Source of the DNA: Oligoflexales bacterium
GTDB taxonomy: Bacteria; Bdellovibrionota_B; Oligoflexia; Oligoflexales; Bog-1112
Length of the DNA: 14,252 nucleotides
NCBI GenBank assembly: GCA_045105515.1
Contig: JBGCDR010000249.1
Span: 1 to 14,252 of the forward strand
Direction: 5' to 3'
Made by a program: the position numbers and the translations under genes. Positions 1-13,009 of the stretch are shown here, piece after piece; the first letter of the stretch is position 1, and each line of letters opens with the position of its first letter. The notes below the pieces were generated by a model. The model ran no database searches, had not been told where the DNA came from, and worked only from the letters and a program-made list of their open reading frames with translations.

Positions 1-94
1 CGCAGCTTCTTCAAAGTTAAGAGTCAGAATTGATAAGCTTCGTGATGAAATAGGTTACGCAGCAGCAGGTCTTTGGAACTATAAAATAACATAA
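1..94 (+). CDS. 3' end of a CDS entering from the left edge (…AASSKLRVRIDKLRDEIGYAAAGLWNYKIT*)
   Basis: Frame is open from base 2 to TAA at 92-94 with protein-like composition, and AT-rich intergenic sequence follows. Confidence 0.55.
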   Translation, partial: AASSKLRVRIDKLRDEIGYAAAGLWNYKIT

Positions 95-306
95 ATTAAG
101 CTACCAAAGGGTTTTATCAATTGTTAGACAACTCTAATATTATAGCATCACTTTGGAGTACATTTAGCTGGGTAGCCTTACAAGTACAATTTCAATCATA
201 ATCTAAATGCCGATATTTGAAGATTATGAAGTTATTATTATTACAAAATAATTACTGGACAAAAAGGTCAATTAAAACAGCATCAAATGGCAGTCGCGAG
301 ATTATC

Positions 307-335
307 TTAATTTTTTAAAAATTTTTTTCCGATAA
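307..335 (+). promoter_or_regulatory. sigma28/SigD-like promoter
   Basis: TTAAT(307-311)-N16-TCCGATAA(328-335), same spacing as four other copies in the window. Confidence 0.55.
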
Positions 336-477
336 CAGATTGATTATTAAATCAACTAGACTAAAAATTAGGTTTATTCAGGAATCGGACTATTTTCCTA
401 GTTAGTTTAAAAGAAACTGCAAGGAAAACCCTATCAATAGAATTAAATGATGGAAAGAAATAGTATACCAACTTCAT

Positions 478-570
478 ATGAAGAAGAAAACATTGAGTCA
501 TACAAATTTGCCGCAATTTCTGGTATTATCATTGGTCTTTCTGGCTGCTGCACTTTGTGTTTTATATTGA
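478..570 (+). CDS. candidate small membrane peptide, 30 aa (MKKKTLSHTNLPQFLVLSLVFLAAALCVLY); alternative overlapping frame 447..584, 45 aa
   Basis: Basic N-terminus plus a single hydrophobic helix, downstream of the 307-335 promoter motif. No clear RBS. Confidence 0.3.
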   Translation: MKKKTLSHTNLPQFLVLSLVFLAAALCVLY

Positions 571-576
571 TTGCTA

Positions 577-1260
577 TTATCTAGTTTTTATCTGTCCATA
601 ATACAAGGGACTTCGATATTCGAATATAGATAAAGTTTCAAATTTATGCCTCGAGGTAATAAAACAAGACTCATGAGTTTGATATTCGACCATTTGTTTG
701 TTCAAGTTAAGGTCGTATGACATGGCTGAGACTATATTCAACATTGCTTTATTATAGAGACTTGAAGAAGCTTCGTACATGGAGTCGACCTCTTTCTGCT
801 CACTCCAGTAGTTAAAGACATCTGTATTGGTTAAAAGATCTTAAGATTTAGGCGTAGCCATGCCTGAAGTTCGGTACATAGTGCCAGAATTGTGGCTGTA
901 GATACATTCGCCCAAATCAAGCCTCATATCGATACCATCTTAATGCAAAGGGTTGTAAATTATTGTCTTTGCACCATATATTTCGATTGAGTTAGCGATA
1001 CCTCAAAAATAATGGTTTTATTTTAGGATCATTTCCTTCTATACCTAGAAAAGAAAAATTTCTTTCCGCATCTTCAAAGGTATGGTCGATTAGATATTTA
1101 TATGAATCACGAAAAAATATATTATATACGAATTCTGAAATCTGAATATCATCACCGCTCTTCCTGGCAATAGCTTCGACCACATAGTTTCGGGCTGATA
1201 ATTTTCAGGTTAGTTTGCTTGGGTGTTTTTAAACTTCCTCATCTTTCGATGTAAAATAGT
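577..1260 (-). pseudogene. degraded gene of unknown function
   Basis: ORF fragments 992..1183 and 577..780 can be joined by one frameshift near 1000. The 577..780 frame extends upstream through in-frame TAA stops at 841-843 and 940-942 (GIANSIEIYGAKTIIYNPLH*DGIDMRLDLGECIYSHNSGTMYRTSGMATPKS*DLLTNTDVFNYWSEQKEVDSMYE…). Further stops occur upstream of 1183. The 5' boundary is approximate. Confidence 0.5.
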
Positions 1261-1426: not shown

Positions 1427-1777
1427 ATGTCCAAAATACTAATCGTAGACGATCATCAAGATACCATTGAAACTATTGAATCATGCATTAAAGACAATGC
1501 CACTAAGATTTACAAAGCTAATGATGCTAAATCTGGCTGGACCACCTTCAAAAAAGTGAAACCTGATCTTGTAATCACTGACTATGGCATGCCAGAAGTA
1601 GATGGATATGTCCTCGCATGTTTGATCGCAAAAGAAAGTCAATGTCCGGTGATCCTTGTAACTGGTTATGGGAACATTGATGAAAAGCTAAAATCACAAT
1701 TCGTCCATGTATTCCCGAAGCCATTTCCTATCGAAGATTTCATGAATACTGTTAAAGATCTACTAAAGCGTAGTTAA
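1427..1777 (+). CDS. single-domain response regulator (CheY-like receiver)
   Basis: ILIVDD acidic pocket, phosphoacceptor Asp in DLVITDYGMP, Thr in ILVTG, conserved KP(F). AAGGA RBS upstream. Confidence 0.93.
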   Translation: MSKILIVDDHQDTIETIESCIKDNATKIYKANDAKSGWTTFKKVKPDLVITDYGMPEVDGYVLACLIAKESQCPVILVTGYGNIDEKLKSQFVHVFPKPFPIEDFMNTVKDLLKRS

Positions 1778-1806
1778 TAAAAACCTCGCATATAGGACTA
1801 CCAAGC

Positions 1807-2028
1807 ATGACGACTCAGAAACAAAAAGATTTGAATGCAATTGACAAATCTATTCTTGAACTACAGAGTCAACTAAAGGTTGCACCAAATGAACAAGAGC
1901 ATGCTGAAACTTGGAATATAATTGATCGAAATCTAGAAATTAGAACTACTATTTTAATAAACAGATATGAAGAACTATCTTCGGATCAAATAAAACTCTT
2001 GAATCTAATCAGAAAAACATTTGGATAA
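1807..2028 (+). CDS. small helical hypothetical protein, 73 aa
   Basis: AGGA RBS, 29 nt after the receiver gene on the same strand, amphipathic helical pattern. Confidence 0.7.
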   Translation: MTTQKQKDLNAIDKSILELQSQLKVAPNEQEHAETWNIIDRNLEIRTTILINRYEELSSDQIKLLNLIRKTFG

Positions 2029-2260
2029 TAGATTTTCGATTTTTATAATGAGCCCCACATTTATTTTCTCCCCTAAATTATTGGATTTTCCTCCATGAAT
2101 TTCGATTCTTATTGCATCCTATAAGGATGTAACTGAGTTTTTTTCATCCTGCGACTCCTTACTCAAACCCTACTAATTTAATTACCGGCGTTAACCTTCT
2201 TAATTACTGATCCTTACAAAAATTCCTTTCGAAACTTCGAGAAATAGCCGAACTTATTGA

Positions 2261-2342
2261 TATGCAGTTGTTACTACTGTAATTTACTATTTTCAAATGA
2301 TCTTGTATCCTTTTTTAGTGGACCAACAGGGTCATTTTTTTT
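2261..2342 (+). ncRNA. candidate small RNA (5' hairpin plus terminator hairpin)
   Basis: TGCAGT/ACTGTA hairpin at 2263-2281, a 12-bp stem 2295-2306/2326-2337 with G-U pairs, and an 8-T run at 2335-2342. A GCCGAACT -10-like box lies at 2247-2254. Confidence 0.35.
2295..2342 (+). terminator. intrinsic terminator-like hairpin
   Basis: AAATGATCTTGT…ACAGGGTCATTT stem followed by a T tract. Confidence 0.6.
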
Positions 2343-2568
2343 AGCCTTTGCTTAAACGCATATTTTTTTACTCATACTTTAAATAATATCCTTGAACTCA
2401 CTTGGTTCAAGTGTTCTCTTCATGAAGGGGTTTTAGTTCCCTTTGGAGAGTCATGCTTTATTTTATATTTGAAGGGTAAAATAGAGAACTTGGGTTTGGG
2501 AGTCTTTCCAAATTGATGTACTGCTGATTACCAATACATTGCCAGTAGGGTGCGCATTTGTACCTACT

Positions 2569-3495
2569 CTATTCCAAAGATATCTGACAGGAATCATTTA
2601 TCCAAATACCTCCCTTAGCTTGGCAAATCTTAGCTTTCTTCATAACGTTGGGATTTGTTTTTGGGTTTGCCTTTGTGTTTGCCTTTACACCCGCCTTTGT
2701 GTTTGCCTTTGCGCTCGCTTTTGCACTTGCCTTTGTACTCGCCTTCGTGCTCGTATTCGTATTTGTACTAGCTTTCGCAGTCGCTTTAGGCTTAACCTTA
2801 GGCTTAACCTTAGGCTTAACCTTTGGTTTGTAAGCTTTAAATCCTAAAACTTTGTCAACTTTCGCAGAGGTAGTCATTGGTCCTATGATATTACTTTTTC
2901 CTCCTTCAGCAGTAGCTGCTCTGGTAGCAAAAGTATCTTCGGGAAAATCTTTAAAAAATAAAGAAGCTACTTTTCCAAGATGAGTTCTGATATCAAATGC
3001 TCCTGGACATCCATAGGATTGGTATTCATAGGAATCTCTTGGATTCGAAATATTCTGAAGTAGCATAAGGACCTTAAAACACCCAATAGAGCCATTATTT
3101 TCGCTCTCATAGTCAGAGGTCACAATCTTCATAGTATAGGTATCTTTACCTTTTTTAATTTTGCGAATGTTGTTTTCGTGAATTACTCCAATTTGTAATT
3201 GAGGACCACTCTTATTTCTTTTTTTAGCTTTCATGTCACGTATCCTATTTGAAACGTGATCTACTATTGCTCCATAAGTATACCTTAGCTTATTTTTTTC
3301 CTTGTCAGTTTCATATTTTGGTATTACGAACACTAGTAGTTTATCCGACTTAAGCAATTTCTTTTCATCTTCCTGTGGACTTAAAAAAAACTCGCTGCCT
3401 CGGAATCCTTTTGTTGCTACCCATGTGGACGATGAGTTCACGCAACTACTAGTTACGATAGACATAATCAAAAGCAGTAATTTATTTACTCGCAT
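2569..3495 (-). CDS. lipoprotein with Lys/Ala/Thr tetrapeptide-repeat tail and terminal two-Cys motif
   Basis: Signal peptide MRVNKLLLLIMSIVTSS-C and GGGG RBS. KPKV x3 is followed by KATA/KAST/KASA/KANT repeats, and the protein ends CQAKGGIWINDSC. Confidence 0.85.
   Translation of the reverse strand: MRVNKLLLLIMSIVTSSCVNSSSTWVATKGFRGSEFFLSPQEDEKKLLKSDKLLVFVIPKYETDKEKNKLRYTYGAIVDHVSNRIRDMKAKKRNKSGPQLQIGVIHENNIRKIKKGKDTYTMKIVTSDYESENNGSIGCFKVLMLLQNISNPRDSYEYQSYGCPGAFDIRTHLGKVASLFFKDFPEDTFATRAATAEGGKSNIIGPMTTSAKVDKVLGFKAYKPKVKPKVKPKVKPKATAKASTNTNTSTKASTKASAKASAKANTKAGVKANTKANPKTNPNVMKKAKICQAKGGIWINDSCQISLE
2645..2821. repeat. coding 12-bp tandem repeat (three exact TTAGGCTTAACC copies at 2786-2821, degenerate copies to ~2645)
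   Basis: Direct reading of the sequence; it encodes the K-x-x-x periodicity. Confidence 0.9.
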
Positions 3496-4059: not shown

Positions 4060-4524
4060 TTACTGTTCATCATTGTAATCTGGGTCAGGATTGTTTATTT
4101 TCAGCCATTGTTTAGGGTTACTCTTAAATCGCTCGGCTTCATTACGAATATATTGGACATCTTTTCTCGAAGCATGATCTGACCAAATTTCTACATGCTT
4201 AAAGTCAATCTTATTACCTTCCACAACTCCGAATTGTGTTCCAGTATATATCCAATGTTCAAACGCCCGCTTCTGCTCACTAATCATAATACCGCGTAGC
4301 TCTAAATTAACAACGCCTCGGTACTGCAACCTAAAATCGTTGGTGAAAAATATGATAAATGCCCAAGAGAAAGCTAGCGGCTCCAGCAAATTCAAAATTT
4401 TAACCATTGAGGGAATAAAACTAAAGAGTATAGCTGTAATTAGCCAAAATAGAGCTAAAATCGCTCCAACATGATGAGCATAATTATGGAACCAATATTT
4501 ATAATTTATTTTATTTAAAAACAT
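4060..4524 (-). CDS. membrane protein, two predicted TM helices, unknown function (start revised from 4551)
   Basis: Hydrophobic segments VGAILALFWLITAILFSFI and LLEPLAFSWAFIIFF. A GGGGG RBS lies 9 nt before the ATG at 4524. Confidence 0.75.
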   Translation of the reverse strand: MFLNKINYKYWFHNYAHHVGAILALFWLITAILFSFIPSMVKILNLLEPLAFSWAFIIFFTNDFRLQYRGVVNLELRGIMISEQKRAFEHWIYTGTQFGVVEGNKIDFKHVEIWSDHASRKDVQYIRNEAERFKSNPKQWLKINNPDPDYNDEQ

Positions 4525-4572
4525 TAAGAGTGACCCCCTATTTTTTTCCATTATATTCCCTCTCGCTTTAAT

Positions 4573-4593
4573 AATAGATTTAATAAATCTATT
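4573..4593. promoter_or_regulatory. palindromic candidate operator between divergent genes
   Basis: AATAGATTTA-A-TAAATCTATT, perfect 10-bp arms. Confidence 0.35.
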
Positions 4594-4802
4594 TTACTCG
4601 AATCATCGGTTGTGCTGCATTATCTACACGAACAATAAAACCACAAATATCGCCAAGATAAATTACCCTGCCCTTCATCATTTCTTCCAGAGTCGTCTTG
4701 ACATGATTTTGGCTCTGTAGAATATAGCGACAACATAAACAGTAAGTTATTACTTAATTTATAGCATATAATCTTATATTAACATTACCTTATAAAGCTA
4801 CT

Positions 4803-4830
4803 TTTAGTCAGACATAAGCATCTCCGATAA
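4803..4830 (+). promoter_or_regulatory. sigma28-like promoter (partial -35)
   Basis: TCCGATAA at 4823-4830, 43 nt before ATG 4874. TTTAG lies at N15. Confidence 0.5.
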
Positions 4831-4873
4831 GTGTTATATACATCACAAAAAATTCATAATTAGGGGGTATTCT

Positions 4874-5371
4874 ATGAATTCAACACTCTTGTCGTTGGTA
4901 TTACTTTTAAGTTTATTTGGCTGCGGATTTGAAAATATTATTCCGGGCAGCAAATCAGAAAAATCAAATTCTCAGGAAGCTGGAGATGAAACAAATTCTG
5001 ATGATGGATCTCAAGGAAATTCTAACCCAGGGGATGAAGAAGATGATAAAGAAGACGAATGTAATTTTCACAGTTTGATATCCTCAACTTATGCAAGTGA
5101 TTTTGGTGACATCAAATTAGAGATCTCTTCAGATAATTCCGTTGAAGGCGATTACTCCTACGATGGCTATGAAGGAAAAATAGAAGGTTTATTTGATAAA
5201 AAGACCCTTAAAATTGAAGGAAATTATCGCGAGTTTAAGGAGAGAATCATTCTTCCCTCTTCAGAAGAGACCGGCAATTTTGTGATAGAATTTAGCGTTG
5301 ACGATTGTAAGCAGGTCAAAGTTGTTGAAAGTAGCTATCAAGAAGAAGGGGGGGAAGAATGGGAGCCTTGA
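4874..5371 (+). CDS. lipoprotein with acidic linker and beta-barrel-like C-terminal domain
   Basis: Lipobox LFG-C and GGGGG RBS. Gly/aromatic beta-strand pattern, similar to 6120..6782. Confidence 0.85.
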   Translation: MNSTLLSLVLLLSLFGCGFENIIPGSKSEKSNSQEAGDETNSDDGSQGNSNPGDEEDDKEDECNFHSLISSTYASDFGDIKLEISSDNSVEGDYSYDGYEGKIEGLFDKKTLKIEGNYREFKERIILPSSEETGNFVIEFSVDDCKQVKVVESSYQEEGGEEWEP

Positions 5372-5410
5372 GGAATTAGTGCCAAATAATATCTAATTTT
5401 GATAGTCCTA

Positions 5411-5440
5411 CCTGGATCTAAAATTCGGTCCAGGCTTTTG
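5411..5440 (+). terminator. hairpin terminator between convergent genes
   Basis: CCTGGATC-TAAAATTC-GGTCCAGG followed by CTTTTG. Confidence 0.55.
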
Positions 5441-5478
5441 TCATTAAGGATGGGCTATCTTCCTACCTCTAAATATTT

Positions 5479-5874
5479 TCAAAGATCTGGAATTTTTATA
5501 AGCTGACCTGGTCGAATCAAATTTGGTTTAATTCCAGGGTTAGCAGCCAATATATCATGCCACAATTCCTTATCTCCATAATAGCGAGCTGCTAATTTAG
5601 ATAACCAATCCCCACGACGAACCTTATGATTTTTAAACCGTGAATAAGAAGGATTCTCTGCGGATGGCTCTTCAAAAAGATCCGCTTCCTCAGAAGAGTC
5701 TTCTACGACTTCATCAAGGGGGAATAAGAAAGGTTCTTCATAAACAATTAGTTCAGTTGCAGATTCTTCATTCTCTTCATTCACTTCATCAGTGGTGGCA
5801 CATGATACAGAACCAAGAATAAATAATACGGCTATTAATTTTTTAGAAATTGATGAATTTAGTATTTCTCTCAT
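5479..5874 (-). CDS. LysM peptidoglycan-binding lipoprotein (start revised from 5889)
   Basis: Lipobox SVS-C and acidic linker. C-terminal LysM HKVRRGDWLSKLAARYYG…ILAANPGIKPNLIRPGQLIKIP. GGAG lies 9 nt before ATG 5874. Confidence 0.92.
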   Translation of the reverse strand: MREILNSSISKKLIAVLFILGSVSCATTDEVNEENEESATELIVYEEPFLFPLDEVVEDSSEEADLFEEPSAENPSYSRFKNHKVRRGDWLSKLAARYYGDKELWHDILAANPGIKPNLIRPGQLIKIPDL

Positions 5875-6119
5875 TATGAATGACTCCATTATAGATTTAT
5901 CTAGAAACTAAGCAAGATAAATGCCGAAGCCAAGCACCTAATATTTAGCATTTTTTTTAATGAAGTGTGTCTAGTAATTGGAATGTGTCAAATAAATATA
6001 CATTAAAATATTGATGATGTTTTTTAGCGAGTGTTCAGATTTAACGAATTATTGGGAATTAAAAATCTACAGCACAAATTTTCGATAGACATACTCAAGG
6101 ACCTAGCTTCGGCTTTTTC

Positions 6120-6782
6120 TTATGGACGAAAGCAGAAATAATCTTCTTGATCAAACCAGCCTTCCAATTCATCTTTTATCTCAATTTGTTTGGTGTTTGG
6201 ATCATTGATAAGTGTAAGGTTCCAATCTTCAATCCAATTGCCGCTTGTACCATATCGCCACTTACCAATTAGATCAATATTTCCAGTTTTATCACCTTCA
6301 AAAACAAATTCTGCTTCACCGTAGTCATCTTCGCTCTTTGCTCGGTACTTTTCATTATTTTTATCTACCTCACACCACCAAGCTGTCACTTTCCCTGTAT
6401 CCGGATCATATTTACCTGTTAATGTACCCTTGCGATAATTGTAAGTTCCTCTAACATTATTGCTACTATCTATCTTCAGTACTAGTTCATTCCACTTCTC
6501 ATTGTCATAAAAACCATTTACAGTACTGCTTATTTCTCCTTTTAGAACCTCAGATGATGAACTATCTTCATCTATAGGAGCTACTTTATTATCTTCTTTA
6601 TTTTTCGGTGCTGGATCCTTTTCAATCACTTTTACTACTTCGCCTTGAATATCTCCAGATTCGGTATTCTCCACTTTTTTGCTGTCATCTGCACTGCGCA
6701 TTTTTGCTGAAGAGCATGCAAACCCAAACAACAAAAAAATCAAAAAAACTATATTAGATACAGTGTTATTAACATTAACCAT
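6120..6782 (-). CDS. lipoprotein with Trp/Gly-rich beta-barrel-like domain
   Basis: Lipobox GFA-C, charged linker, and VRGTYNY…GTLTGKYD…AWWCE…GEAEFVF…GKWRY strands. Confidence 0.85.
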   Translation of the reverse strand: MVNVNNTVSNIVFLIFLLFGFACSSAKMRSADDSKKVENTESGDIQGEVVKVIEKDPAPKNKEDNKVAPIDEDSSSSEVLKGEISSTVNGFYDNEKWNELVLKIDSSNNVRGTYNYRKGTLTGKYDPDTGKVTAWWCEVDKNNEKYRAKSEDDYGEAEFVFEGDKTGNIDLIGKWRYGTSGNWIEDWNLTLINDPNTKQIEIKDELEGWFDQEDYFCFRP

Positions 6783-6814
6783 AGCGAGCCATTCTTACTT
6801 AAAAATTTACTATC

Positions 6815-6843
6815 TTATCGGAAAAACTGATCTGTTTTCTTAA
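6815..6843 (-). promoter_or_regulatory. sigma28/SigD-like promoter
   Basis: Minus-strand TTAAG-N16-TCCGATAA, about 30 nt upstream of the 6120..6782 start. Confidence 0.65.
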
Positions 6844-6984
6844 TATTTTAGTTAATTAAGCTATATTATTACAAATTTTCAATGATAATATTGCAAGATC
6901 AAATTTTATTAGAGTCTTGTAGGTCGGATTATTATTGCTAGTCTTTGTGAGTTTCGCCGTGAGTGAGTCAAAACTGCTTGTGAC

Positions 6985-8070
6985 CTACTTTAGATAGTCT
7001 TTTTGAGGAGATCTCTGTAATGCAGAAACACATTCAAAGTGAGCTGTACTAATTGGCTCCCCTTTAATAAGTGCATCATCGAAAGCGCTGGTCACCATGG
7101 GTTTTATATCAGCGGGTGAAAAACTACTAAAGACCCGAGCGATGTCTAACTTATGAGTTTTATGTTCAATCAAGCTAAAGTCCATATCCGGATAATTTTT
7201 CTTACTATTAGCAAAAAACATATCTAACAATGGAACTATTTCATGTTCTCTCGGTTTTTCAACTTCAATTTTGCTCGGTAGCCTTCTACCTAGCATGGCT
7301 TCATCTATTAGACTTGGTCTATTGGTTGCTATGATAATTACGTAATTTTTAGAAGCAGATCCAGTCAAAGAAAGAAAATGGGAAAGAAAATCTGCATGAT
7401 CTTTGCTGGTGTTAGTTTTTCTTGACTCAAACATGATTTCTGCCTCATCGAAGAAAAGTACTACCTTTCTCTTGTCAAACATTGATTGAGAATTTGCCCA
7501 TTTAAAAAGCTTAGTCAACCGTGTTGTTTTCTCTTCTTTAAATGGCTTAAACGAACTGCCTGACATAAGCGCGTAGGTAAACCCTTTTCTATTTCCTATT
7601 CTCTTGGCTATTTCTGTTTTTCCCGTACCTGGTGCTCCCATCAAAAGGAGACTTGGCAATTCTCTTTTCTGTTTTATCGCTAAATCTAATCGAGCAATGT
7701 AACTGTCAAGCTTACTCTTAGTATTTTTCGGATATATAAGGCCCTTAAATAGGTCCTTATGTGGAGTTCTTGGTTGAAACAAAATATTAGGGCCATACTT
7801 TGCAGTAGGAGGTTTAAAGAAAATATTGTCTACATATCCTTGGACAAAGGGATAAAGTAATGACGTGAAAACTGCAGACACTATCTGAGCTCTCGCATTG
7901 AATAACATAAGGTCTGAGCCCACCGAAGATGCTACGTTTGAGGTAGCAACTGAAATACTCTGACCAAGTGTAGAAGAAGCCTTAGTAGCTGTTGATAGAT
8001 TCAAAAAGAACCAGGTCGTTAAACATAGTAAAATAAACCTAAAATCAAGGATTCTTGTGTGCTTCATCAT
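6985..8070 (-). CDS. membrane-targeted AAA+ ATPase, ATAD3-like (start probably ATG 8070 or 8067)
   Basis: Walker A GAPGTGKT (7615-7638), Walker B LFFDEAE, sensor-1/SRH IATNRPSLIDEAMLGRR. Also YALMSG, KLFKWAN and FLSLTG segments, an N-terminal signal-like helix, and a second hydrophobic helix. Confidence 0.9.
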   Translation of the reverse strand: MMKHTRILDFRFILLCLTTWFFLNLSTATKASSTLGQSISVATSNVASSVGSDLMLFNARAQIVSAVFTSLLYPFVQGYVDNIFFKPPTAKYGPNILFQPRTPHKDLFKGLIYPKNTKSKLDSYIARLDLAIKQKRELPSLLLMGAPGTGKTEIAKRIGNRKGFTYALMSGSSFKPFKEEKTTRLTKLFKWANSQSMFDKRKVVLFFDEAEIMFESRKTNTSKDHADFLSHFLSLTGSASKNYVIIIATNRPSLIDEAMLGRRLPSKIEVEKPREHEIVPLLDMFFANSKKNYPDMDFSLIEHKTHKLDIARVFSSFSPADIKPMVTSAFDDALIKGEPISTAHFECVSALQRSPQKDYLK

Positions 8071-8356
8071 TTTTTCCAATAAAATAACCACTATTCAGTG
8101 GTAAAATCTATTTTTTGCGATTCAGATGCCATTAAATAGCATTACTGGCGGAAATAAGCAAGACAAATTTCTTAAACTCCTTTAATTAACGACATTTAAG
8201 GTTTGTTCCTTTAGAAGCGATTCCCATAAAGTAAGATATTTTTATTGTGGAAGTATCGAATGCAAAGTTTTGATGTATTCCCAAAGCTCGCAAAACTATA
8301 TTTTCGTAATTTTAGTATTGAATTTAATAAGAAAGAAAAATTAAATATGCCTAGGA

Positions 8357-8385
8357 TGCTTAATATCAAAAACTGATATTAAGCA
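8357..8385. other. perfect 12-bp inverted repeat (terminator or operator)
   Basis: TGCTTAATATCA-AAAAC-TGATATTAAGCA. Confidence 0.55.
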
Positions 8386-8466
8386 ATAGATTACGGAAAA
8401 TGGAAAGCATAGATATGTGTATCAGGGGAAAAGCTCTAAATATTATCTAATTCAAACCAGTTTTGG

Positions 8467-8489
8467 TTTTGGACAAGGAAAGTCCAAAA
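8467..8489 (-). terminator. hairpin immediately after the 8494..9048 stop
   Basis: TTTTGGAC-AAGGAAA-GTCCAAAA. No strong U tract on the minus strand. Confidence 0.4.
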
Positions 8490-8493
8490 TTAA

Positions 8494-9048
8494 TCAATTA
8501 GTAATTCTACCGAAAATAGAATCAATATCATTCAAAAGACTAGACAATGCTTCCGCATTCTTAATCGCTTTTTTTGGAGCATTCAAATCTGAATCTATCG
8601 TAGTTTCAGGAGTTTCTGCATTGTCAGAGGAAGAAGCAACTGATTTATCTGAAGAAGATGATTTAATCGTGATTACAGAGCCTATTATACTATCTGAAGA
8701 AGAGACTACAGATTCATGACTTTTCGAAGCAGAAGAGGATATTGAATCATCATCATCAATAGAAGTAGAAGTAGGGTCTTTAAACCCGAAATAAGTAACT
8801 CCACCTACTACCATGATAGTAGCCGCAACAGAAGCACCACATTTTAAAGGGTTCGCAACACACCATTTTAATGGGTTTTTGCTAAAGCCAATTTTAGTCT
8901 GATTTTCGTTTTCCAGCTCTGAAGATAGTTCGTCAAAATTAGATACTATCTCTTCGGAATCAATTTCTTGAACAACAATAGCGTCGTATTCTTTACCAAA
9001 TCCAGTATTAGCAAAAGCTAAACCAATAATTAAAAGTACAATTTTCAT
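8494..9048 (-). CDS. signal-peptide protein with internal TM helix and Ser-rich tail
   Basis: MKIVLLIIGLAFANTGFG signal, NPLKWCVANPLKC, hydrophobic GASVAATIMVVGGVTYFGF, and a Ser/Asp-rich linker. AAGG RBS. Confidence 0.8.
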   Translation of the reverse strand: MKIVLLIIGLAFANTGFGKEYDAIVVQEIDSEEIVSNFDELSSELENENQTKIGFSKNPLKWCVANPLKCGASVAATIMVVGGVTYFGFKDPTSTSIDDDDSISSSASKSHESVVSSSDSIIGSVITIKSSSSDKSVASSSDNAETPETTIDSDLNAPKKAIKNAEALSSLLNDIDSIFGRITN

Positions 9049-9406
9049 AACAAGTGACCTTATATAAATTTTTTTTAAAGACGATTGGCGACATTACCAC
9101 AATTTTAGCTAAAATCAACCTCAAAAAAAGTAATGCCTTTTGAAGGCCTAATTGGTCACTATTTTGCTAGTAAAGCTATAGTAAGATTATTTTTATAATT
9201 GATTAAGAATATGAATATATTAAGCAAGGAATAGTAAACCGATCTCGGTTAAAAAAACAGTATATTATACACTTATTGGATTCTGGATCTGAGATTAATT
9301 ATGATTCGAATCAACTTCCTATTTCCCTACTATTTAAGAATAAGATTATATTTAAACTCAATTTTAGTTTAAGGGAGAAACCTGAAATTATGATATGATA
9401 TCAAAC

Positions 9407-10993
9407 CTAATTAATAAGATTTGACATTGCTGCGCACGACAATGAAGGCGATTGAGTGGTATTGTAGTGCTCTTGCTGGAAACCAAAATCATATTGAGAC
9501 CATCCTGGATGGTCCGCTAAAGTGTTATTGAACAAGGCTTTTAATCTAGGATCTTTTAACGTCTGTGACAGTTCTGGAAGGGTGGTAGCGAGGTTCGGGT
9601 CATCCTTTAACAAGGCATCCAGCAATAAGATGCCTGCTGGGAAGTCTATTCTATTAAAACCGATCCACATACGCACTGGCTGATCACCTGTACGATGAAA
9701 ACCAAATATATCTTGATAGTTATATCCAAACTCCATAAGCTTGTTCTGAATGCCTGCATAATCCTCTGTGCATGCTAACTCATAAGCTAATGCTAAGCGG
9801 TTATTTTGGCTCAGATCATCATTTGACATTACTGCTGATGTCAAAGCTCTTCCTGCATTTTTTGCTAGAAAGAAATTCATAATCTGATTATTACCATTTT
9901 CTCCATAATTTACCCGAGGTCGCAAAACACCTTCAAGAGGATAATTATTCTGAAAAGTCAAATATTGATAAACAGGTGATGTGTTATCCTGCTTTGCCGC
10001 ATTAAGTAAATCCAACTCTTCAGCTGTAATTTTATCTCTATCTCCTACTGTTCCAGGCCAACTATTATAGGCTGTCCAGTTTGGTCGAGGGGATTGACTA
10101 TGACAAGCTTTACAAGTTTCTCTTTCTATTTCGGTCTCTTTTTCGGAATCATAAGTTAGACCAACTAAGTCCCAAGTATTGGTATTATAATCAAACACAG
10201 CAACTTCGACTGTTTTCGAATTCGGTACTGTTTCAACTGTCACAATAAATTTACCATTAGGAGCCATCAATATTACCCTTGGGTTTTCCATGGAGGCAAA
10301 TTGGTTGCTCCTAGATGTGTGCATCATCATCCAATTTGGTCTAACTTTTTCCGGTAGGTTCTTGAGAACGTCTTCTGGAGTTTCAAAGCATGCTAAATCA
10401 GCCCCGTCACTGAAGTTCTCCCAATCAATTTTGCATTCTCCATTTTGCTGCCCACCAGGGGTATTTGAATCTGAATTAGGCTCCATATTTAGCGCATAAA
10501 CTAAATTTTCTATTTCTATGTTGCTAAGAGTAATATCTTGCATATTTGGAATACTGACTATAGCCTTACGGATTCGCTCTGCATCAGCCAGCAGCTTTGA
10601 AGACACGGCAAGCTCCCCATGACATGAACTGCATTCTGCCTTATAAATAACAGCACCAGAATCAAACTTTTCTTGATCAAAATCAGTCTGCTGGCCCTGA
10701 TCTTTGTTGGAATCGGTTTCAGAGTCCTTATTTTCTTTATCAGTATCTGTATCAGTGTCCTTGTCACTCTTGATGTCAGTCTTGCTATCTGTCTCTGGTT
10801 CTTTATCTTTTTCTAGCTCTGTATCATCTTCATTTGAATCATTTGCTTTAGAAACGTCCTGCTCAGGTTTTAAATTATCAATAGATGCATTAGAGCTTTT
10901 AACAGCCTTTGCTTCATTAACTCTGTTTAAATTATCTGGCTTTGAACAGCCAAACATCAATGACGCAATAATTATAAGTGAAAATATACCCAC
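9407..10993 (-). CDS. diheme c-type cytochrome lipoprotein (start revised to GTG 10993)
   Basis: Lipobox MFG-C and Asp/Lys-rich linker. CSSCH (10619-10633) sits in a class I cyt c-like domain with a distal Met (IPNM), and a second CKACH lies at 10100-10114. TGGGAAAA RBS precedes the GTG. Confidence 0.88.
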   Translation of the reverse strand: MGIFSLIIIASLMFGCSKPDNLNRVNEAKAVKSSNASIDNLKPEQDVSKANDSNEDDTELEKDKEPETDSKTDIKSDKDTDTDTDKENKDSETDSNKDQGQQTDFDQEKFDSGAVIYKAECSSCHGELAVSSKLLADAERIRKAIVSIPNMQDITLSNIEIENLVYALNMEPNSDSNTPGGQQNGECKIDWENFSDGADLACFETPEDVLKNLPEKVRPNWMMMHTSRSNQFASMENPRVILMAPNGKFIVTVETVPNSKTVEVAVFDYNTNTWDLVGLTYDSEKETEIERETCKACHSQSPRPNWTAYNSWPGTVGDRDKITAEELDLLNAAKQDNTSPVYQYLTFQNNYPLEGVLRPRVNYGENGNNQIMNFFLAKNAGRALTSAVMSNDDLSQNNRLALAYELACTEDYAGIQNKLMEFGYNYQDIFGFHRTGDQPVRMWIGFNRIDFPAGILLLDALLKDDPNLATTLPELSQTLKDPRLKALFNNTLADHPGWSQYDFGFQQEHYNTTQSPSLSCAAMSNLIN

Positions 10994-11036
10994 GTTAAGC
11001 TTTTCCCATTTAGATTGCCGATTATAACTAGGCAAC

Positions 11037-11350: not shown

Positions 11351-13009
11351 TTATAGCTGAGGTTCCATTACCGTTTCTTGCGTTGGAACCTTAGATGAAC
11401 CCGGGTAGTAAGGGTTCATGCCAGGAATAATTTGACCATTGCGTTCGAATTGATAAGCTAATGCAAGCCCAAAATAAACCGTAGACGCTGTATGGGGATT
11501 GAAATAGTATGACCAGGTAATTCCTGTATTGCAGCACGAATCATCAGAAGGTTGATTATGAGCAGGAATGCCCGAGCTTCCATATTCATCAAACATTATC
11601 TTAACGCTAGTCCGTAACTTATCTATATCAGCGCTCGCATTATTCTGATGAAAATCGTTCAGCGCCAGGAGTGCGGCTCCAGTATTTTCCGATTGAATAC
11701 CACTTCCGATATTAGTGAATTTAACGCCCCAAATTGCTTGGCCTAGACGAGAAGTAAACCCTGGATCTTCTATCATAAAAGTAGGTGTCACCAAAGCCTC
11801 CATTGTTGTAGGGGTCCTGGAATCATGATTGGCTACATTTTCTTCAGCTCTTGCTAGGTAACGCCAAGTAATCCCATCAACAGGTACAAATTCGTTATTA
11901 AGTTGCGTATTCGCATTGCATGAAGGTTCAGTTCCAGTACGATAGCGACCATTAGCGCTGTCATACATTTGGCTAACAAATTTGCCAGCTATTTTTTGAA
12001 CCTCATCAGCCGAGGTGTTAACTCCAGGCTCTGCAGTCAATGCAGCTTTTTGGACACACGCTCCTAGAGCATACATATCGAGATTATGTTCAACAGATTG
12101 CCAATCCGCAGATGCAGTGCTTGTGGGGCGCCCCATATAACCTTGATAGGGACCAGTTTTACATTGAAAGTTATTATGAATTTCTGACATTATGGCTTTG
12201 GCAGCACTATAGTATTCTTTATGCAAAGTTGCATTAGGAGCATCGTCTTTAAACTGAAGGTAATACCTGCAGAACGCTAAAGCCATCATGGAATTGTTAC
12301 CAACGTCAAGGAATGCACCACCAGAATCAATCCACGATGCTGGATTTAGGTCATAATGGTTAACCCTTGGCCAAAAAAGCCCTTTCCTGTAATTATCATT
12401 AGCTAGAGTCCACTTATGCATACGAAGCCAGGAGTCAAGAATCTTTGCAGCCTTTTGTGGTTTTCCAACTACGGTAAAAAATATTGATGCCAAAGCGTTA
12501 TCATAGGTATCAGATGCTGCATAAAATATATCTCCCTCAGCAACATCGTAAGTCCGGACAGTATAAGCATTAGGGTCATCGCTATGCATTGCATGCCTTG
12601 TTTGACCATCTATATATTGTTCGACATAATTCAAATATTTGTTCTGTTCTGAGTTGTCTAATTTAAATGGACCAGACACCTGTGGATCATCTTCAGAAGG
12701 ATCTTCTGCTGGAGGATTTTCATTTTCCATGCCTCCTGCACTCGCCATTAAATCATCAGCTTCTTTTCTAAGGTCTTCTGCTTCTTCTTTAAGACTTTCG
12801 GCTTCTGCATCATTTCTTGCTTCAGCCTCCGCTGCTCGTGCCTCGGCCTCTGCGGCTCGTGCTTCAGCCTCTAATGCTTTTGCCCTAGCCTCTGCCAACA
12901 TTTCCTCGGTTGCTGCCGAAGAGGAATCTGACATATTAACTCGAGCTCTTCTTTTTGTGCTACAAGAGCTAACCACTAAAACCAAAATAATTGGTAATAC
13001 ATACTTCAT
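11351..13009 (-). CDS. lipoprotein with coiled-coil stalk and putative six-hairpin glycosidase-like (alpha/alpha barrel) domain
   Basis: Lipobox VSS-C and AEARAAE heptad repeats. Helical segments with TYDNALA, DVGNNSMMALA, WQSVEHNLDMYAL, ENTGAALLAL and PHTAST motifs. The fold call is from pattern recognition. Confidence 0.8.
   Translation of the reverse strand: MKYVLPIILVLVVSSCSTKRRARVNMSDSSSAATEEMLAEARAKALEAEARAAEAEARAAEAEARNDAEAESLKEEAEDLRKEADDLMASAGGMENENPPAEDPSEDDPQVSGPFKLDNSEQNKYLNYVEQYIDGQTRHAMHSDDPNAYTVRTYDVAEGDIFYAASDTYDNALASIFFTVVGKPQKAAKILDSWLRMHKWTLANDNYRKGLFWPRVNHYDLNPASWIDSGGAFLDVGNNSMMALAFCRYYLQFKDDAPNATLHKEYYSAAKAIMSEIHNNFQCKTGPYQGYMGRPTSTASADWQSVEHNLDMYALGACVQKAALTAEPGVNTSADEVQKIAGKFVSQMYDSANGRYRTGTEPSCNANTQLNNEFVPVDGITWRYLARAEENVANHDSRTPTTMEALVTPTFMIEDPGFTSRLGQAIWGVKFTNIGSGIQSENTGAALLALNDFHQNNASADIDKLRTSVKIMFDEYGSSGIPAHNQPSDDSCCNTGITWSYYFNPHTASTVYFGLALAYQFERNGQIIPGMNPYYPGSSKVPTQETVMEPQL
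12813..12897 (-). repeat. degenerate 21-bp coding repeat (AEARAAE heptads)
   Basis: Translation AEARAKALEAEARAAEAEARAAEAEARN. Confidence 0.75.

Follow-up and report, generated by a model that had tools for sequence, protein, structure and literature searches.

The minus-strand gene at 6985..8091 of a 14,252-nucleotide stretch from an Oligoflexales bacterium (contig JBGCDR010000249.1 of assembly GCA_045105515.1; the whole stretch is referred to below as the window) encodes a predicted classical-clade AAA+ ATPase with complete catalytic motifs, whose AAA module is, by score, profile comparison and tree, specifically ATAD3-like, a match too close to be explained by chance or by generic AAA similarity. 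The same comparisons place the window protein in a divergent subgroup of an ATAD3-like superfamily, not as an ATAD3 orthologue, and the bacterial family to which it belongs is, judged from sequence, the closest relative of the eukaryotic mitochondrial ATAD3. Passages of a recent preprint (bioRxiv 10.1101/2025.10.06.680775) describe ATAD3 as a mitochondrial inner-membrane AAA+ ATPase with its AAA domain in the matrix, essential in animals and Plasmodium and linked to human mitochondrial disease, with a molecular action that is still unclear; these passages state that ATAD3 had initially been regarded as a protein of multicellular eukaryotes only, and contain neither the word 'bacteria' nor 'prokaryotes'. 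What is already known of the bacterial branch is the automatic annotation of the Joint Genome Institute (JGI), which calls some metagenomic members 'ATAD3A/B'; a published description of a bacterial ATAD3 relative was not found in a literature search whose coverage left subscription journals and supplements outside.

The minus strand carries one intact open reading frame of 368 residues, counted from the GTG at 8091, and the plus-strand frame at the same positions is closed by many stops. The collection protein P0002 is identical, has 360 residues and begins with MKHTR, i.e., at the ATG at 8067. This ATG is the probable true start, giving a 360-residue product, because P0002 is identical at that length and because a terminator-like hairpin followed by a T-run (8102-8087, minus strand) overlaps the GTG and lies just upstream of the ATG. 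A promoter and terminator scan of 5900-9500 did not rise above shuffled sequence (11 promoter-like matches against 14.3, and 2 terminator-like matches against 1.7). The gene and the parts of its AAA module, numbered as in P0002 unless stated, are as follows.

6985..8091, minus strand: open reading frame of the ATAD3-like AAA ATPase, 368 residues from GTG 8091, 360 residues (P0002) from the probable ATG 8067.
7261..7650, minus strand: AAA core domain PF00004, residues 148-277 of P0001 (Pfam 78 bits, E 1.2e-21, cut-off 21.2).
7615..7638, minus strand: Walker A, GAPGTGKT, residues 144-151.
7444..7461, minus strand: Walker B, LFFDEA, with D207 and E208.
7282..7329, minus strand: sensor-1 and second region of homology, ATNRPSLIDEAMLGRR, with N249 and R261/R262.
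7012..7254, minus strand: helical lid of the AAA module, residues ~272-352.

The residues expected of a working ATPase are in place. Five positions of Walker A (G144, G147, G149, K150, and T151) and both acidic residues of Walker B are invariant in 78 family sequences, and N249, A257, and R262 are invariant in the family. The preliminary description had named intact Walker A and B motifs and a second region of homology, and the GAPGTGKT and VVLFFDEAE stretches, the sensor-1 asparagine and the paired arginines are indeed all present; the segments that it had listed, GFTYALMSG, KLFKWAN, LFFDEAE, FLSLTGSAS, ATNRPSLIDEA, and IVSAVFTSLLYPFV, likewise all occur in the translation. The AlphaFold2 (AF2) model, with a mean predicted local distance difference test score (pLDDT) of 88 overall and 95–98 across the AAA module, folds into an alpha/beta core with a helical lid, whose helices (residues 274-352, pLDDT ~97) align with the lids of ATAD3 and FtsH. 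Foldseek assigns this model a probability of 1.00 to p97, FtsH, and Rpt subunits, and ranks a full-length FtsH model first, with 338 columns aligned. At the alignment position that we take to be pore loop 1, the window protein has K-P-F, its bacterial relatives Q-F/Y, and ATAD3 G/A-P-L/M. The intact motifs, together with the aromatic residue at this presumed pore loop, suggest an active motor; hexamer formation and ATPase activity are both predicted. A pseudo-ATPase was considered and rejected, the catalytic residues being all intact.

The preference for ATAD3 appears once individual domains are compared. An exhaustive phmmer search against 1.84 billion representatives gives 10,460 matches at E<=1e-3, of which 26 reach E<=1e-30, and the matches were rescored per domain, since summed scores put giant proteins with 4–6 AAA domains first. 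On this scale P0003 reaches 404 bits, a few short relatives lie at 122–172 bits and some 75 single-AAA proteins at 84–112 bits, whereas the Cdc48-like, FtsH and other AAA domains fetched reach at most 57 bits, the exception being the two-domain protein P0080 (62.6 bits). The ATAD3-type proteins are thus ahead of other AAA domains by ~30 bits or more per domain. The Pfam domain ATAD3_N is found at E<=1e-8 in 17 of the 72 single- or double-domain matches scanned, and the named matches that bear it are eukaryotic: Porospora, Chrysoparadoxa, proteins labelled 'ATAD3A/B' by JGI, and Pinctada (P0181, PF12037 followed by PF00004). In the profile alignment, the Pinctada ATAD3 presents SGMDYAIMTGGDV, HKVFDWANTS, LLFVDEADAFL, NAFLYRTGEQS, and LASNQPEQFDWA collinear with the segments of the window protein, the shared pattern being SG..., LF.WA, F.DEA(E/D), FL..TG, and A(T/S)N.P..D.A.

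Profile comparisons lead to the same placement. With hhalign, the window subgroup aligns with 13 eukaryotic ATAD3s at a score of 426 (E 1e-55) over 295 columns, starting from residue 65, inside the second hydrophobic helix, and with eight FtsHs at a score of 272 (E 1.6e-35) over 248 columns, starting from residue 103. A profile built from six bacterial modules returns family members throughout its best 120 matches (234–452 bits); those that are named comprise 17 eukaryotic proteins (plants, Babesia, and Phytophthora, several of them ATAD3), four from bacterial metagenome-assembled genomes (MAGs), and ten JGI 'ATAD3A/B', and none of the 120 is named FtsH, Cdc48, proteasome or SpoVK, bar one fragment that JGI names 'SpoVK/Ycf46/Vps4 family'. 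The resemblance to ATAD3 beyond generic AAA motifs, which had been proposed from human ATAD3A segments, is therefore borne out by per-domain scores, profile comparisons and tree alike, and the best scores, profiles and tree placement all prefer ATAD3 to generic AAA proteins of the SpoVK, FtsH or Cdc48 kind.

Phylogenies were computed with FastTree (113 rows) and with IQ-TREE under LG+C20+F+G4 in its posterior mean site frequency (PMSF) form (85 rows, 309 columns; a short search, with the Shimodaira–Hasegawa-like approximate likelihood ratio test, SH-aLRT, as the sole support measure), and both agree. A branch of 1.26 with 100% SH-aLRT parts all 71 family rows from the 14 outgroup domains (FtsH, Cdc48 D1 and D2, multi-AAA giants, and plant AAA). 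Eleven eukaryote-type rows that bear ATAD3_N form one clade (99% support), outside which the window protein lies; its partner is P0003 (100%), followed by P0026 and P0036 (93%), in a basal, unresolved part of the tree with long-branched groups. The eukaryotic clade itself sits within a 53-row group (94%) together with bacterial-type clades, which include two paralogues of the window genome and a Babeliales protein; most tree rows are unnamed, and 'bacterial-type' was assigned by the crude criterion of their N-termini. A constraint that forces all 60 non-eukaryote rows into one clade costs 12.7 log-likelihood units and is not rejected (approximately unbiased (AU) test, p 0.26), so that the nesting of the eukaryotes, and with it any direction of transfer, is insecure. 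In the FastTree set, a signal-peptide-like start is present in 49 of the 67 rows outside the eukaryote clade, as against 1 of the 19 within it.

The general view of ATAD3 as a eukaryotic mitochondrial family, from which the preliminary description had started, does not hold in that form: dozens of single-AAA relatives carry bacterial-style signal peptides, and the named ones come from Babeliales/Dependentiae and Chlamydiae MAGs. A bolder conjecture, which we regard as doubtful, is that ATAD3 is not a eukaryotic invention but would either descend, as a mitochondrial protein, from bacterial envelope-anchored AAA motors (signal peptide, periplasmic helical region, transmembrane (TM) helix, AAA) or have been exchanged with them in ancient times, these motors surviving mainly in host-associated lineages such as Dependentiae, Chlamydiae and relatives of the window genome; the four paralogues of the window genome, each paired with a small signal-peptide/TM protein carrying (F/L)D(E/K)L, would then represent a previously undescribed two-gene membrane-remodelling module.

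Two sets of tree and search entries stand apart. P0020-P0025 and ~60 more matches are giant proteins of 1000–2124 residues with 4–6 tandem AAA domains, which come out on top by summed score and reach 30–57 bits per domain; P0020 and P0023, the sole ones in the tree, fall in the outgroup. Within the eukaryote clade, the ATAD3s P0138 (886 residues) and P0145 (925 residues) have an N-terminal Peptidase_S74 domain (endosialidase chaperone) fused before ATAD3_N and AAA, and P0134 and P0162 align with each other across their N-terminal extensions.

The bacterial family follows a common plan, in which a hydrophobic N-terminal signal is followed by 100–350 residues, one TM helix, a linker with the motif LxKPxLVxETS, and the AAA module. 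Within the family, the ectodomain is shortest (~10–25 residues), and the anchor helix least hydrophobic, in the window protein and P0003. The nearest relatives of the window protein are P0003 (60% identity, 404 bits), P0026, P0036, P0034, P0004, and a paralogue on contig C305; relatives are labelled 'AAA family ATPase' by NCBI (in Dependentiae/Babeliales, Chlamydiae, and 'Zetaproteobacteria' MAGs) or 'ATAD3A/B' by JGI. The window genome (6.29 Mb, 461 contigs) holds four family paralogues, of graded length.

C249 (the window): 360 residues, minimal form.
C305: 416 residues, 41% identity to the window protein.
C66: 477 residues, with a signal peptide, a long N-terminal helical region, a TM helix and a KPRLV(K/Q)ET linker.
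C351: 626 residues, with a signal peptide, ~300 helical residues, a strongly hydrophobic TM helix and a KPRLVKETN linker.

The TM helices of the two longest paralogues have Kyte–Doolittle (KD) hydrophobicities of 2.1 (C351) and 1.8 (C66), and the C66 protein shows weak similarity to the final 60 positions of the ATAD3_N profile (18.8 bits with Pfam, cut-off 25; 41 bits with a local model). Within the phylum, the family is found in 2 of 131 genomes, i.e., the window genome (four loci, 180–484 bits) and a second genome of the same taxonomic family, G005 (509 bits). The remaining phylum genomes give matches of 97–132 bits only, mostly in frames of ~600–720 residues, which is the size of FtsH (these frames were not inspected singly), and a profile search of a 94% complete genome of the same genus returns no member. 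Both the G005 copy and a copy in a Chlamydiae MAG lie among bacterial-looking genes. A scan of genome contigs with a three-sequence alignment yields five loci, two of them family members (L040 and L041) and the other three short stretches of weak similarity in MAGs of Firmicutes; with the same alignment, a scan of metagenome contigs finds no relative among 595 pattern matches. The member in the Chlamydiae MAG (L041, 2167-3660, plus strand, 497 residues) starts without a signal-peptide-like segment (MSYFFNTEDMARKF...) but still has the TM helix, along with a GRPKLATE linker; the same N-terminus is found in P0085, and it would fit delivery by a non-Sec route.

The region N-terminal to the AAA module of the window protein consists of four parts, all encoded on the minus strand.

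7978..8067, minus strand: signal-peptide-like N-terminus (residues 1-30), with a basic n-region MKHTRILDFR and a 14-residue hydrophobic core FILLCLTTWFFLNL, then STATKA before SS.
7912..7977, minus strand: Ser/Thr-rich connecting stretch (residues 31-52), predicted disordered (pLDDT 47–51, residues 35-50 without secondary structure), which would be periplasmic.
7834..7911, minus strand: second hydrophobic helix LMLFNARAQIVSAVFTSLLYPFVQGY (residues 53-78), a predicted homologue of the ATAD3 TM/juxtamembrane helix.
7675..7833, minus strand: juxtamembrane linker and N-terminal helix of the AAA module (residues 79-131), holding a degenerate form of the family motif LxKPxLVxETS (VDNIFFKPPTAKYG), as placed by alignments and hhalign.

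The signal-like helix and the second hydrophobic segment of the preliminary description are both visible, in the sequence and in the AF2 model, where a helix of residues 2-34 leads through the disordered stretch 35-50 into a long helix of residues 51-83, followed by the AAA module and lid. From the sequence, a hydrophobicity scan and the first model helix, STATKA-SS is a possible signal-peptidase site. The second helix is moderately hydrophobic (KD 1.43 across 19 residues), forms a segment of the 33-residue helix 51-83, and aligns with the TM end of ATAD3 starting at residue 65. It had been proposed that the N-terminal coiled coil of ATAD3 is replaced here by these two segments. The coiled coil is indeed absent from the window protein; the second segment is not new, and aligns with ATAD3's own TM/juxtamembrane helix, and the loss of the coiled coil is particular to this paralogue, those on C351 and C66 retaining a long N-terminal region.

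Taken together, we think it moderately probable that the protein is a hexameric ATPase anchored in the inner membrane, with its motor in the cytoplasm, and a minimal member of the ATAD3-like family. The signal peptide would carry the N-terminus across the inner membrane, and the second helix would halt transfer and anchor the protein (N-out, C-in), leaving the AAA module in the cytoplasm as a hexamer on the membrane; a cytoplasmic motor is expected, because an AAA motor needs ATP. The topology would then be that of ATAD3, with the cytoplasm in place of the matrix and the periplasm in place of the intermembrane space, and with the extracytoplasmic part reduced to ~25 disordered residues in what would be a motor-only version. 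The motor probably remodels, threads or extracts membrane or envelope proteins, and its possible co-workers are the longer paralogues or the small signal-peptide/TM protein encoded alongside.

Several observations weigh against this arrangement. The second helix contains N, R, and Q residues, and in the closest relatives of the protein the values are even lower (KD 1.1–1.4), so that, given this weak hydrophobicity in the window protein and its neighbours in the tree, it may not stop transfer. The positive-inside signal across 84 family proteins is weak, the mean net charge being +0.83 N-terminal to the TM helix and +1.82 C-terminal to it; lysine and arginine together are more numerous on the C side in 41 proteins, equal in 13, and fewer in 30. 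Only K-P of the linker motif LxKPxLVxETS is retained in the window protein (FFKPPTAKYG), and Pfam ATAD3_N (PF12037) gives no match to it at E<=0.01, ~50 residues preceding the helix.

If the signal peptide is cleaved and the second helix fails to stop transfer, the protein could instead be an exported, eukaryote-like effector, i.e., an ATAD3 mimic that works in an ATP-containing compartment of a host or prey and inserts into a host membrane. Besides the weak hydrophobicity of the second helix, which is seen in the whole window subgroup, the named bacterial members from obligate intracellular lineages (Babeliales/Dependentiae and Chlamydiae) and the patchy, accessory-like distribution in the phylum point in this direction, and passages of the Babela paper (PMC4378268) argue that other AAA proteins with signal peptides in Babela are secreted into the amoeba. 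However, a helix (here of 33 residues) placed after a Sec signal is the usual design of anchored proteins, paralogues in the window genome have fully hydrophobic TM helices, and in ATAD3 the homologous segment serves to anchor the protein in the membrane, according to the preprint passages cited above (bioRxiv 10.1101/2025.10.06.680775). We therefore regard an effector as unlikely; of the two possibilities raised in the preliminary description, the membrane-anchored cytoplasmic AAA protein is the better supported.

A hairpin anchor would differ from the N-out, C-in arrangement in signal-peptide cleavage alone: the first segment would remain uncleaved, the inner membrane would contain both helices, in the N-in, C-in manner of FtsH, and the AAA module would once more be cytoplasmic. 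In the AF2 model a short loop connects helix 2-34 with helix 51-83, basic residues precede the first helix, and the top Foldseek match is, as noted above, a full-length FtsH model. The 14-residue hydrophobic core of the first helix, however, has the length of a signal peptide and is followed by the small-residue site TKA-SS, which makes a hairpin unlikely.

It is very improbable that the protein is a generic bacterial AAA protein (SpoVK, FtsH, Cdc48 or proteasomal), or an anti-phage ATPase of the IetA type, without a particular tie to ATAD3. Curated libraries and solved structures would allow it: Pfam names PF00004 alone above threshold, the NCBIfam matches include PAN, FtsH, IteA, and CdvC at 42–45 bits, PADLOC finds IetA at 65 bits, the solved structures nearest by sequence are the two domains of p97/Cdc48 (43 and 32 bits), with FtsH and Rpt subunits also among the best structural matches, and one relative bears the SpoVK-type JGI name mentioned above. 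However, none of the 18 NCBIfam families matched comes near its cut-off (best 45 bits, against 500 or more), the two flanking genes hold no IetS-like or other PADLOC family, and the per-domain lead, the tree and the profile comparisons side with ATAD3. No ATAD3 entry is present among the 60 best Protein Data Bank (PDB) sequence matches shown or in the Foldseek list; these lists cannot show a preference for ATAD3, because neither returned such an entry.

Eukaryotic or foreign DNA mis-binned into the window genome is scarcely credible: the contigs are short (3–14 kb), the estimated contamination is 4.8%, and the same-genus genome lacks the family, but the four paralogue contigs have a GC content of 33.6–36.5% (38.3% for the genome) and tetranucleotide correlations to large contigs of 0.936–0.967 (20th–70th percentile of 321 contigs of similar size), the genes are uninterrupted, with bacterial-type signal peptides and bacterial neighbours, and G005 has its member between bacterial genes.

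Among named proteins, the AAA module is thus nearest to ATAD3 by score, profile and tree, and the alignment continues N-terminally, where the helix and linker align with the TM and juxtamembrane region of ATAD3; the proposed topology would be the same. Unlike the full-length ATAD3s fetched (~460–850 residues), the window protein is bacterial-encoded and has 360 residues; it lacks the ATAD3_N coiled coil, its linker is a degenerate version of LGKPxLVRETS, and it has a Sec-type signal peptide, which is lacking in 18 of the 19 eukaryote-clade rows. With FtsH it shares a classical-clade AAA module on an N-terminal membrane anchor, as reflected in the Foldseek and hhalign matches given above. However, the window protein ends after the lid, without the M41 zinc protease domain (PF01434 unmatched), FtsH scores lower than ATAD3 in an alignment that begins 38 residues later, and it falls in the outgroup of the tree. 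IetA/IteA is likewise a single-AAA bacterial protein of similar length, with PADLOC matching residues 110-342 and NCBIfam IteA at 44 bits, but the NCBIfam cut-off of 510 is far above, and the match omits the signal peptide and TM helix.

The gain from the window protein alone is modest, as it is a divergent, truncated member. The bacterial branch, if it does share its motor and juxtamembrane region with ATAD3, may offer a simpler system for AAA action at a membrane, since its smallest members have 360 residues without the coiled coil and should express in E. coli. It also raises the question of the origin of ATAD3, and draws attention to a set of unannotated genes, labelled 'AAA family ATPase' in intracellular bacteria, whose products may target membranes of the host or of the bacterium.

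All four paralogues adjoin, on the same strand, a gene for a protein of 181–258 residues with a signal peptide, an acidic stretch containing (F/L)D(E/K)L, and a TM helix.

8494..9048, minus strand (window): candidate partner gene, 184 residues, with a signal peptide, an acidic stretch with FDEL, one TM helix and a Ser-rich tail.
1490-2266, plus strand (locus L002): small neighbour protein.
607-1152, minus strand (locus L003): small neighbour protein.
78-734, minus strand (locus L004): small neighbour protein.

The small gene lies upstream of the AAA gene in the window and downstream in the other three loci, with gaps of 15–313 nucleotides. Genome-wide, (F/L)D(E/K)L occurs at residues 21-70 in 9 of 1167 signal-peptide-like open reading frames of 100–320 residues, and four of these nine are the paralogue neighbours; the motif was defined after the neighbours had been seen. 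BLASTP among the small proteins gives nothing significant (best E 0.009, in a six-sequence database), and the G005 copy has no such neighbour among its open reading frames of at least 120 residues. A complex prediction for the AAA protein with the product of 8494-9048 gives a score of 0.00 (mark 0.32) and no verdict either way. The small protein is thus a candidate partner, a lead and not a result, drawn from adjacency and a post hoc motif.

The other neighbours in the window include a response regulator, a LysM protein (gene 5479-5889), and a cytochrome-c-like protein. The last may be the 542-residue, secreted-looking product of 9407-11035 (minus strand), which contains a region with a cytochrome-c-type motif, reaches 26.6 bits with Pfam Cytochrome_CBB3 (cut-off 27) and has a second weak haem-motif match near residue 300. 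The other window genes (4060-6782 and 11351-13009) are mostly signal-peptide- or lipoprotein-like and without a Pfam family (4874-5371, 6120-6782, and 11351-13009), the region being rich in envelope proteins without an assigned family. At 2569-3495 (minus strand), a 308-residue protein with a signal peptide ends in KPKV and TKA(S/N) repeats, and the open reading frame on the opposite strand (2539-2847, plus strand) looks like a by-product of these repeats.

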